Part shown: positions 5,393 to 28,657 of the stretch, one piece after another
Position numbering within the stretch: position 1 is the first letter of the stretch
How the letters are laid out: each line of letters starts with the position of its first letter
From: Escherichia phage St11Ph5
Strand: one strand, 5' to 3'
Sequence record: NC_070873.1
DNA length: 64,000 nucleotides
The notes under the pieces: generated by a model
Told to the model about the DNA's origin: nothing
Databases searched by the model: none
The model's input: the letters and a program-made list of their open reading frames with translations, nothing else
Position numbers and translations under genes: made by a program

Positions 5393-5403
5393 GTAGCTGC
5401 CTA

Positions 5404-5430
5404 AATAGCCCAGCATTGTTGGGCTATTTG
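5404..5430 (+). terminator. terminator-like hairpin
   Basis: 9-bp stem AATAGCCCA / TGGGCTATT, loop GCATTGT; weak T-tract. Confidence 0.35.
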
Positions 5431-5465
5431 TGAAGAAACTAACTCAACCCCACATAGGAACCATC

Positions 5466-5717
5466 ATGGAATCTTTAGCAGCAATCCTTGTTATGTTGTT
5501 TGTATTAGCTGTATACCTTATCCCTACTATCATTGCTTTTGCACGAGGCCATGCCTCTAAGTGGGGCATTGGTGTGCTAAACATCGTATTAGGTTGGTCA
5601 CTGGTATTCTGGGTAGTAGCACTGATTTGGGCACTGTCCAATAAAGGAACTACAATCGTTAACGTTGGTAGTGGTAACCAGTACAACGTGTCCCAAACGA
5701 GCAGTAAAGCAGAGTAA
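5466..5717 (+). CDS. superinfection-immunity-like small membrane protein
   Basis: Two predicted TM helices; IPTIIAFARG ... LGWSLVFWVVALIWAL pattern; start ATG 5466 with AGGAA RBS (ORF extends to 5430). Confidence 0.5.
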   Translation: MESLAAILVMLFVLAVYLIPTIIAFARGHASKWGIGVLNIVLGWSLVFWVVALIWALSNKGTTIVNVGSGNQYNVSQTSSKAE

Positions 5718-5789
5718 CTAACCGAAGTATCCCCAAGAGGGTACTTCTGGAAGTTACTTCCAGCTCATTGCTTATCCATCTCCTAACCC

Positions 5790-5820
5790 AAGCCCACCTA
5801 ACCCGTGGGCTTTTTTATTT
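5790..5820 (+). terminator. Rho-independent terminator
   Basis: Stem AAGCCCAC / GTGGGCTT followed by TTTTTTATTT. Confidence 0.55.
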
Positions 5821-5848
5821 AAAGGTACTTCTTGTGACAAGTAGACGA

Positions 5849-6212
5849 ATGGTAAGTCTATCCTACAAGGACTGGACTTCGGTAAGCTGGAACAAACTGC
5901 AATGCTTGCTTTAGGTAAAACTATCCATGACCAAGTGGAAAGTGAAATTGAAGCAGATATTTATACAAGAATGCAGGTTCTTATTAAGAAAAATGGGTTA
6001 CTACCAGATCCCTTCATTCATACATTCCCCCAGAACCTCATCTGAAATCTAAGGTAGACCGAATCATAGATAAGTTCTGGCTTAACCCATGTAAGGATGA
6101 CACGCAACTTTATCTGGCTCAAATACAAAAGAATCCTCGTACTAAGGATGTATTCAAAGGCAAGAGCACTACCCATCACTACCCCTGGTATAGAAGAGGT
6201 AGTAAATACTAA
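5849..6212 (+). pseudogene. possible frame-disrupted gene (three short ORFs in successive -1 frames)
   Basis: ORFs 5849-5914, 5902-6045 and 5988-6212 overlap, each -1 relative to the previous; no single ORF over 75 codons; frame-0 piece has no ATG. Confidence 0.25.
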
Positions 6213-6655
6213 TGCGTATTCCATTCCTAAGAAAAAGAGAACGAAATCCTGTTCTTTATAATAAAGGCATAGAGGATGAGTATGAACTCAACCGTAAAGC
6301 TCGTTCCTACACAACAAAATTATTCATGGGGACTAAAAACCCTGATAGATTATTGGACTTTGTTTTTGAACAAGTCTTTATCATATACAGCTTAGCTATG
6401 TCTGCTGGTTCACAAGAAGTGAGTGATAAGGCAAGAGATGCTCTCTGTATGCTCCGTAAAGAGTATGAAGCCCTCATGTATGAAGACTTATACTCCTTTA
6501 AAAAAGAAACCGCTGTAGCGTGTTCTGTGGCTCTTACTGAAGGTGTAGCAGTATTACAGGAACTACCTCGTAGTGAGTTTAAGCTGGTATACGTTCAGGT
6601 TAAGAAAATCACAGAGACGAGAAGTGGTATCACCAACTATCTAAGGTCATTCTAA
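6212..6655 (+). CDS. hypothetical protein
   Basis: 147-aa ORF; start overlaps upstream stop (TAATG); ATGA overlap with thyX downstream. Confidence 0.5.
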   Translation: MRIPFLRKRERNPVLYNKGIEDEYELNRKARSYTTKLFMGTKNPDRLLDFVFEQVFIIYSLAMSAGSQEVSDKARDALCMLRKEYEALMYEDLYSFKKETAVACSVALTEGVAVLQELPRSEFKLVYVQVKKITETRSGITNYLRSF

Positions 6656-7599
6656 TGATTAAGGCAACTGTCATTGCAGATTCCGTTCATCCAGAAACAG
6701 GAACTCGTATCACAACCTTTGAATTGGTTTACCCCCGATTCATTCACAGTGAGTTTATGACTCACCGTGTATTTAACCGTAACGCTTCAAGCAGTCGTGC
6801 TATCCCAACTGCTAAGTTAATCGAACAGGTTCGTAATGAACCAGTGATGCCAAGTCACTGGGGTAAGAACCAGAAAGGAATGCAGGCAAGTGAAGAACTC
6901 ACTCCTATGGAGATTAAGGATGCTGAGTTCATTTGGGAAAATGCTGCCTCTGTTGCTGCTGTGTATGCTGAACAACTTCGTCGCGGACAAGTACATAAGC
7001 AGATTGTTAATCGTATTCTGGAACCATTCACGCATATCCGTGTAGTGGTAACTTCAACTAGCTGGGCTAACTTCTATGGATTGCGTGACCACAAAGATGC
7101 ACAACCAGAGATTTGTAAACTGGCTCAAGCAATGCGTAAGGCACATGAGGAAAGTACGCCAAGGGCATTACCATATGGGCAATGGCATCTACCTTATATT
7201 GCTCATATTGACCGTGTTGGGGCTTACAATTTCTGCAAACGTAATCGAATTACACGCGATGAACCAAGTGATGCAGAAGTGCATGGACTACTTCTCAAAG
7301 TAAGTGCTGCACGTTGTGCTCGTGCCTCATATAACAATTTTGAGGGACGTCCCTCTACTATCGAAGAAGACCTTGGCTTATTCGCTAAGTTAGTGGAAAA
7401 CCAACCTATTCATGCTTCCCCAACAGAACATCAAGCTACGCCTATGAACCTTAGTGAGAAGTATGTGAATAACATGAACCCAGTTACCTGGGAACAAGGT
7501 GTTACATCCATGGATAAAGAAGGTAATCTGTACTCAGGTAACCTGCTCCACTTTATCCAATTCCGTAAGTTAATTCCTGGTGAGACTATTACTGAATGA
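6655..7599 (+). CDS. thyX: flavin-dependent thymidylate synthase ThyX
   Basis: ThyX signature RHRxxxxxS-type motif in THRVFNRNASSSRAIP; 314 aa. Confidence 0.8.
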   Translation: MIKATVIADSVHPETGTRITTFELVYPRFIHSEFMTHRVFNRNASSSRAIPTAKLIEQVRNEPVMPSHWGKNQKGMQASEELTPMEIKDAEFIWENAASVAAVYAEQLRRGQVHKQIVNRILEPFTHIRVVVTSTSWANFYGLRDHKDAQPEICKLAQAMRKAHEESTPRALPYGQWHLPYIAHIDRVGAYNFCKRNRITRDEPSDAEVHGLLLKVSAARCARASYNNFEGRPSTIEEDLGLFAKLVENQPIHASPTEHQATPMNLSEKYVNNMNPVTWEQGVTSMDKEGNLYSGNLLHFIQFRKLIPGETITE

Positions 7600-7834
7600 A
7601 AAACTAGCTCTATATGCAATGCTAACTAGTGGCTTACTCCCATTAATTTTCGCATACAAAGTCGCCTTTGTATTAGAAACAGATATGCAGTTCATTCGAG
7701 CCAGTATTCTGTTATTAATAAGTGAGATTGGTTTGTGGTGTCTTTATTATATTGCTCGTGACTATGAAGCAATTCGCGAGCAAGAAGAAGTGAAAAAACA
7801 AATGATACGTTTTGTAGAACAAAATCGTAAGTAA
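7580..7834 (+). CDS. hypothetical membrane protein
   Basis: 84-aa ORF with hydrophobic segments; overlaps thyX 3-prime end; followed by terminator. Confidence 0.4.
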   Translation: MRLLLNEKLALYAMLTSGLLPLIFAYKVAFVLETDMQFIRASILLLISEIGLWCLYYIARDYEAIREQEEVKKQMIRFVEQNRK

Positions 7835-14083: not shown

Positions 14084-14103
14084 CCCTCTACGGAGGGTTT
14101 TTA
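14082..14103 (+). terminator. Rho-independent terminator
   Basis: Stem AACCCTC / GAGGGTT, loop TACG, followed by TTTTT. Confidence 0.5.
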
Positions 14104-28333: not shown

Positions 28334-28627
28334 ATGGAACTCTTTAAGAAGGGTCAGCTTATACCAAAGCGTATTGGTGGATTACATGTCCATCGTAAAG
28401 CCCGACACCGTTTAACCTTTGGTTGTGATGTACAAATTGATGGTAATAGCTGGATTGCTGTACCGGATACAGGAATTGCAATGGTTCTCTGTAAGAAGTT
28501 AGGTATTCGCAGAAACAACGGTACTTACCAAAACGTAGATGCAGATTTTGTAGATATTTACTTTGAAGCTAACAAGATTGATTATGTAATCAAGACTGGC
28601 AAAAAGATTCTTGTAGTTAAGAAATAA
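28334..28627 (+). CDS. hypothetical basic protein
   Basis: 97-aa ORF with AGGAG RBS; last plus-strand gene before strand switch. Confidence 0.5.
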   Translation: MELFKKGQLIPKRIGGLHVHRKARHRLTFGCDVQIDGNSWIAVPDTGIAMVLCKKLGIRRNNGTYQNVDADFVDIYFEANKIDYVIKTGKKILVVKK

Positions 28628-28629
28628 AA

Positions 28630-28657
28630 TAGAAGCCCCTCATTAGAGGGGCTTTTT
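28630..28657. terminator. bidirectional terminator between convergent gene blocks
   Basis: Stem GCCCCTC / GAGGGGC, loop ATTA, T-tract on plus strand and A-tract upstream (T-tract for minus strand). Confidence 0.55.

Follow-up and report, generated by a model that had tools for sequence, protein, structure and literature searches.

Why should the interval between the superinfection-immunity gene (imm) and thyX in the genome of Escherichia phage St11Ph5 read as a series of short open frames, each in the -1 frame of its predecessor? We addressed this question in a window of 64,000 nucleotides from record NC_070873.1, in which the features of the locus discussed below lie on the plus strand unless stated otherwise. 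The open frames reported in the initial annotation (5849-5914, 5902-6045 and 5988-6212) are present and step serially by -1 through frames 2, 1 and 0, with the gene at 6212 again in frame 2. Their description as three short ORFs holds only in part. The last is open merely from stop to stop: it starts with GAA right after a TAA, contains no ATG, GTG or TTG with at least 20 codons downstream, and is missing from the program-made ORF list because it has no start codon. The first is open as described, but it is a 21-codon out-of-frame run-on, the real start being located at 5834. The accompanying claim that no ORF over 75 codons precedes thyX is literally false, given the intact 147-aa gene at 6212-6655, although that gene had itself been named as the next one in the series.

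Layout and identity of the gp28-like gene

By its profile match, the sequence at positions 5834-6212 is a single homologue of N4 gp28 (phrog_12812). When one base is added at each of the two coding sites, the codon alignment yields a restored protein of 126 aa with no stops, and a profile search aligns its residues 2-126 with positions 2-127 of the 127 in phrog_12812 (E=3.1e-68). Because joining the frames gives a stop-free, full-length match of this kind, the pattern of three frames far exceeds chance. The order imm, terminator, gp28-like gene, gp29-like gene and thyX, including a TAATG stop/start overlap, is common to the window and all relatives.

An intrinsic terminator at 5790-5818, placed after the superinfection-immunity gene, bounds the gp28-like gene on its upstream side; it consists of a stem at 5790-5812 (8 bp, 5 GC pairs) and a subsequent T-run. 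It is annotated in PhAPEC5, PhAPEC7 and SP5M and shows almost no variation in the alignment of relatives. The ribosome-binding region (AAGGT) and spacer occupy 5822-5833 and include an extra T at 5829/5830, which is not present in 28 relatives but is found in the contigs L046-L049, L051 and L052, all with an intact gene. Since near-identical independent contigs with intact genes carry this extra T, we regard it as natural and harmless.

The coding sequence itself falls into three segments. Segment 1 (5834-5847) holds codons 1-5 (GTG ACA AGT AGA CG), beginning with GTG where every relative has ATG; M1 is invariant in 29 homologues. Segment 2 (5848-5993), shifted by -1 against segment 1, continues with codons 6-54 (NGKSILQGLDFGKLEQTAMLALGKTIHDQVESEIEADIYTRMQVLIKK), and segment 3 (5994-6212) supplies codons 55-126 and the stop (WVTTRSLHSYIPPEPHLKSKVDRIIDKFWLNPCKDDTQLYLAQIQKNPRTKDVFKGKSTTHHYPWYRRGSKY), comprising the conserved C-terminal half without a start codon of its own. 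Both of these segments are the same as in the protein of contig L046. Frameshift 1 lies at 5848-5849, where the window has AA and every relative has AAA, in the context GACGAAATGG or GACAAAATGG. Frameshift 2 lies at 5989-5993, an A5 run that is A6 in the nearest natural alleles (L046-L052, PD205, EC1-UPM and PE007); the GAAAAAT stretch to which attention had been drawn earlier is indeed located at 5988-5994, and the second break is an A6-to-A5 contraction within that run. With its two 1-nt deletions and GTG start, the deposited sequence thus lacks a single uninterrupted ATG-started ORF of 124-130 codons.

The sole piece annotated in the deposited record is a 47-aa ORF at 5902-6045 ('hypothetical protein St11Ph5_00036', ATS92499.1 / YP_010659884.1). 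It begins at the internal Met23 of the real gene, runs across the second frameshift and ends with 15 out-of-frame residues, and is a spurious by-product of annotation. The downstream gene at 6212-6655, a homologue of N4 gp29 (phrog_9867, 147 aa), is intact; its ATG overlaps the gp28-like stop, and the exact protein it encodes in the window is present on 12 independent contigs. An antisense ORF of 68 aa at 6018-6224 is taken as a shadow of the conserved sense frame.

What kind of protein the gene encodes is little illuminated by profile or structure searches. PHROG lists the function of phrog_12812 as unknown, the Pfam search of the gp28-like protein returned no family above threshold (DUF1033, at E=0.029, falls below the cut-off), no PDB entry came in below E=0.5 in a profile search, and the AlphaFold2 model, with a mean pLDDT of 43.5, is unusable. 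The label 'shikimate kinase' attached to this protein in some records (24-32N orthologue; PV933157.1, L004 925-1314; PV533664.1) was set aside, as it finds no support in Pfam, PHROG or PDB. A non-coding RNA reading of the region was likewise rejected, the only candidate being a Trp_leader match over the terminator that stayed below threshold (20.7 bits where the gathering score is 41, E=0.13), and a sigma-70 promoter scan of the region gave nothing beyond chance.

Intact copies in related phages

How is the same interval organized elsewhere? A blastn search with positions 5400-6700 recovered records of 61 phages that are 86-92% identical, with Gamaleyavirus (G7C/N4-like Schitoviridae) accounting for nearly all of them, and the corresponding interval in related phages holds one ORF, 126-130 codons long, whose annotation points to similarity with N4 gp28. 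The Bp4 protein, used as a tblastn query, matched about 50 phage records over its full length, all single-frame except ShWW44 and U1G, and the gene is intact in 28 of the 31 sequences fetched. In a search of 5.8 billion protein clusters the family amounts to 281 metagenomic clusters, and the best 120 of the 281 measure 124-129 aa, barring one upstream-extended call of 162 aa. The alignment to the orthologous region proposed in the initial annotation therefore reveals an intact single ORF of 126-130 codons in essentially all relatives, which supports its main suggestion of one gene broken by indels, whether as a pseudogene or through homopolymer errors. The same three short ORFs, an arrangement that was expected to recur in related phages if the frames were conserved independently, are found in ShWW44 only, and that record is not independent.

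The St11Ph5 copy resembles the N4 gp28 family (Bp4 orf61 YP_009032023.1, EC1-UPM gp29, PhAPEC5 gp29) in its position, its restored length and its full-length profile match, and it shares the C-terminal motif YIPPEPHLKSKVDRIIDKFW...HHYPWYRRGSKY that is invariant in the family. It differs from the family in that the deposited frame is broken twice and starts with GTG instead of ATG.

Two relatives bear on whether the gene is needed at all. In the type phage G7C (NC_015933.1 13619-13741, L045) it is absent, gp27.1 (imm) being followed by a 123-nt spacer that contains the terminator and then by gp29. In the U1G record (NC_070872.1, L030) it carries a frameshift of its own, C5 to C4 in ACATTCCCCC; PGN829.1, ZQ2 and HK2, which are closely related to U1G, have the gene in a single frame. 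The change in U1G is either a further case of homopolymer error or a loss that arose independently. Because the gene is absent from G7C and frameshifted in its own way in the U1G record, we consider it accessory and dispensable.

In VTCCBPA_322, ST4 and UE-M3 the gene is called from a start located 102 nt earlier, giving ORFs of 160-163 aa that read through the terminator hairpin; the records with such a call are L017 (252-734), L021 (49-537) and L027 (49-540). These upstream-extended ORFs are probably annotation artefacts with mis-called starts.

The closest alleles come from assembled sequencing samples. Searching for the exact gp29-like protein of the window in ENA/Logan contigs yielded L046-L052, drawn from several ENA and Logan samples, each with an intact 126-aa gene upstream of the gp29-like gene. 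Three of them (L046, L047 and L049) match the gene of the window at 377 of 379 nucleotides (99.5%) and have the same local haplotype, including the extra T, but carry ATG, GACGAAATGG with its A3 and AAGAAAAAATGG with its A6. The restored protein is identical to that of L046 at 124 of 126 residues, only codons 1-2 being different. Along the 1.27 kb from 5393 to 6660, what separates the window from L046 and L049 is confined to three substitutions, the two single-A deletions and an in-frame deletion of 9 nt in imm. The 19-mer representing the deletion state at frameshift 1 has no matches in the viral, metagenome and genome collections, as opposed to 5 viral and 10 metagenome matches (15 contigs) for the intact-state pattern.

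The in-frame deletion just mentioned lies at 5648/5649 in the tail of the superinfection-immunity gene (5466-5717), where it removes 3 aa (CAGTCTCAG). It is private to the window and is found in no relative, the 99.6%-identical contigs included; it may be a real variant.

Sequencing error or loss of the gene

What could account for the two missing A's? We consider an error of assembly to be the likely answer. The DNA of the phage itself would probably have A3 and A6 at these sites, and the deletions would be one-base homopolymer undercalls in the Ion Proton/Newbler consensus. In the deposited sequence, the contractions of A3 to A2 at 5848-5849 and of A6 to A5 at 5989-5993 shift the frame twice and create the three successive -1 frames; on this reading, the protein made by the actual phage would be the normal one of 126 aa. 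Undercalling of homopolymers is well known for Ion chemistry, and Ion consensus sequences rarely contain substitution errors. The St11Ph5 genome was obtained on the Ion Proton platform with a median read of 182 bp at about 350x coverage and assembled with Newbler 3.0 (PMC5764931).

The behaviour of homopolymer runs in the rest of the window is informative in this respect. Private indels were identified against three genomes, nithesis, PE007 and PD38, along 49 kb of the window, and additionally against near-identical Logan contigs. Each of the six private 1-nt deletions shortens an A/T run by one base, and in five cases that run had a length of at least 6: T7 to T6 at 70, A6 to A5 at 1622, A3 to A2 at 5848, A6 to A5 at 5989-93, A6 to A5 at 7598 and T6 to T5 at 14097. 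The same 49-kb comparison revealed no private 1-nt run expansions, and natural near-identical haplotypes have the longer run at each of the contraction sites. The three comparison genomes contain one to three private 1-nt indels apiece, all of them non-coding. Ten runs of at least 6 are conserved in the three relatives, and the window has a contraction in 3 of them, as against none of the 34 runs of length 5. The large genes are intact because long runs are almost absent from them. From the positions of the contractions, their privacy to this assembly and their recurrence in A/T runs across the genome, we infer a technical rather than a mutational cause, which is the reading we favour.

In several respects the pattern is that of Ion Torrent/Ion Proton undercall errors: the platform is the same, and one-base A/T contractions occur, with no expansions, at sites conserved in near-identical haplotypes. 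The A3-to-A2 change, however, sits in a shorter run than do typical systematic Ion errors, which classically affect long homopolymers, and this speaks for a genuine deletion. The two frameshifts also cluster with the private ATG-to-GTG change in one gene of only 379 nt, which is unexpected if errors are distributed uniformly. A rough estimate of p~0.002 was obtained for three indels within 165 nt, at a stage when the extra T had not yet proved natural. The GTG start is probably real, given the rarity of Ion substitution errors.

These observations lend some credit to a true and very recent pseudogene, in which the St11Ph5 stock would carry one or both deletions, perhaps together with the GTG start, and would not make the protein. 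Such a loss would be tolerated because the gene is dispensable, and the deposited sequence is unambiguous at these positions. We nevertheless consider this outcome unlikely, though second in probability to an assembly error. Compared with the 99.5%-identical intact allele, the copy in the window shows two substitutions and two frameshifting indels, a ratio far above the natural one, as represented by nithesis, which at 92.5% identity to the window shows 86 gap events and roughly 3,700 substitutions. Elsewhere in the genome, at least three further A/T runs of at least 6 have privately lost one base, in one case at the expense of a start codon of a different gene; the sequencing was done on Ion Proton; and the deletions were found in no independent assembly. 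The gp28-like gene gives no signal of relaxed constraint either: its restored frame has no further stops, positions 6013-6212 have no private substitutions, and we see no sign of decay in its sequence. In being a dispensable gene with small indels relative to intact orthologues, the St11Ph5 copy is similar to the frameshifted pseudogenes of phage accessory genes; it differs from them in having no accumulated substitutions and in a disruption private to one error-prone assembly. Of the two main options offered in the initial annotation, the evidence thus favours sequencing error over a true pseudogene. A singleton test of synonymous and non-synonymous changes had counted 5 private non-synonymous changes, but it became void when closer natural alleles proved to share four of them, the start-codon change alone staying private.

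A more elaborate version of gene loss would treat the deletions and the GTG start as real, repeated silencing hits on the gp28-like gene, the loss of which could be adaptive by letting the phage evade a host defence that recognizes the protein. St11Ph5 was obtained 'after substantial effort', its UPEC host being unusually resistant to phages (PMC5764931). If this were true, the clean deletion in G7C and the separate frameshift in U1G would represent parallel losses; we regard the idea as a long shot.

Still less probable is programmed recoding, in which a single protein would be produced by ribosomes shifting to the -1 frame twice, or by transcriptional slippage adding an A. It could draw on the perfect conservation of the segments, which are stop-free when joined, and on the location of the second site within an A5 run. 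Successive -1 frames encoding one conserved protein are also what the known cases of programmed -1 frameshifting display (dnaX; the phage tail chaperone G/GT), but these have a slippery heptamer, a stimulatory structure and a conserved shift, none of which is found in St11Ph5. The sequence in the zero frame is AGA CGA ATG G at junction 1 and AAG AAA AAT GGG at junction 2, so that neither fits X XXY YYZ, in agreement with the initial annotation, which held frameshifting to be less likely and saw no such heptamer. The 81 nt following each site are not unusually structured relative to shuffled sequences (z = -1.10 and +0.54), and the A5 and A2 runs are much shorter than known slippage tracts. The two-frame arrangement is not conserved, because every natural relative, the 99.5%-identical alleles included, encodes the protein in one frame. 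Programmed recoding is, in practice, excluded. The least credible reading of all, that of three separate overlapping small genes of 21, 47 and 74 codons, can cite the annotation of the 47-codon piece in the St11Ph5 and ShWW44 records, but its third piece has no start codon, its first is an out-of-frame run-on, its 47-aa product is a one-member cluster among about 15 billion proteins, and the relatives all have one ORF.

With an assembly error as the favoured cause, the feature is one ordinary gp28-family gene that has most likely been split only in a database record, with nothing new in biological terms. Its biological weight is accordingly small, the phage itself most likely possessing a normal gp28-family gene.

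The ShWW44 record and other sites in the window

Does the ShWW44 record (PQ900156.1, L031) provide a second witness to the deletions? It shares both gp28-like deletions and the extra T with the window, and is the only record to share them. A gapless comparison of positions 1-50000 of the window with positions 8445-58444 of PQ900156.1 shows 2,720 substitutions and 0 indels, the CDS coordinates of ShWW44 and St11Ph5 are identical, and both records measure 72,444 bp. Measured against three natural genomes, the window has 42 private indel events, and ShWW44 has every one of them. Of the 59 differences between ShWW44 and the window, 51 are polymorphisms found in intact alleles, and at the third site its CAAAAAGATGG resembles the intact CAAAAAGGATGG squeezed into 11 bases. 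The genome was announced as a de novo SPAdes assembly (PMC12243467). The record behaves in a way that looks like a reference-scaffolded, substitution-only consensus built on St11Ph5 coordinates. Since it is gapless over 50 kb, equal in length and has all the private indels in common with St11Ph5, we discounted ShWW44 as evidence. An alternative in which the two phages represent a pseudogene inherited in two lineages, with recombination responsible for the mosaic flanks, was dropped in view of the gapless alignment and equal length.

The consequences are chiefly for users of these sequences. The RefSeq record of St11Ph5 (NC_070873.1) probably contains at least five homopolymer errors and three mis-annotated small genes, one of which appears as the 47-aa protein, and ShWW44 (PQ900156.1) seems to have inherited every St11Ph5 indel. 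Both records would mislead studies of pseudogenes, recoding or the pangenome of N4-like phages.

Other private contractions touch small genes and intergenic runs. In the small gene after thyX (7596-7834), the contraction of A6 to A5 (site 7598-7603) falls in codons 2-3, where relatives have ATG AAA AAA CTA and the window has ATG AAA AAC TAG. As a result, a predicted membrane protein of 79 aa loses its natural start, and the ORF annotated in the record is a shorter one beginning at 7619; the contraction is probably an error of the same kind as in the gp28-like gene. In the gene at 1441-1653, which encodes 62 aa, the private A6-to-A5 change (~1618-1622) lies three codons ahead of the stop, at a site where the near-identical contigs L053, L056 and L058 have GGAGAAAAAATG. 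The contraction lengthens the ORF to 70 aa and brings its overlap with the next gene to 29 nt, compared with 4. The two remaining contractions, T7 to T6 at 70-76 and T6 to T5 at 14097-14102, are private changes in intergenic T-runs that follow GGAGGG stems; the runs are longer in all relatives and Logan contigs that share the segment, L059 being divergent at 14097.

A different kind of variation characterizes the interval 25100-28650, which is hypervariable and low in coding content. One tRNA-Ala(CGC) was detected there, at 25908-25979, and T-arm-like GGTTCGATTCC fragments near 26740 and 26800 suggest remnants of tRNAs; the counterpart of this interval in relatives contains other tRNAs. It also includes a 362-nt insertion at 27382, not present in the three comparison genomes, which contains an ORF at 27398-27673.
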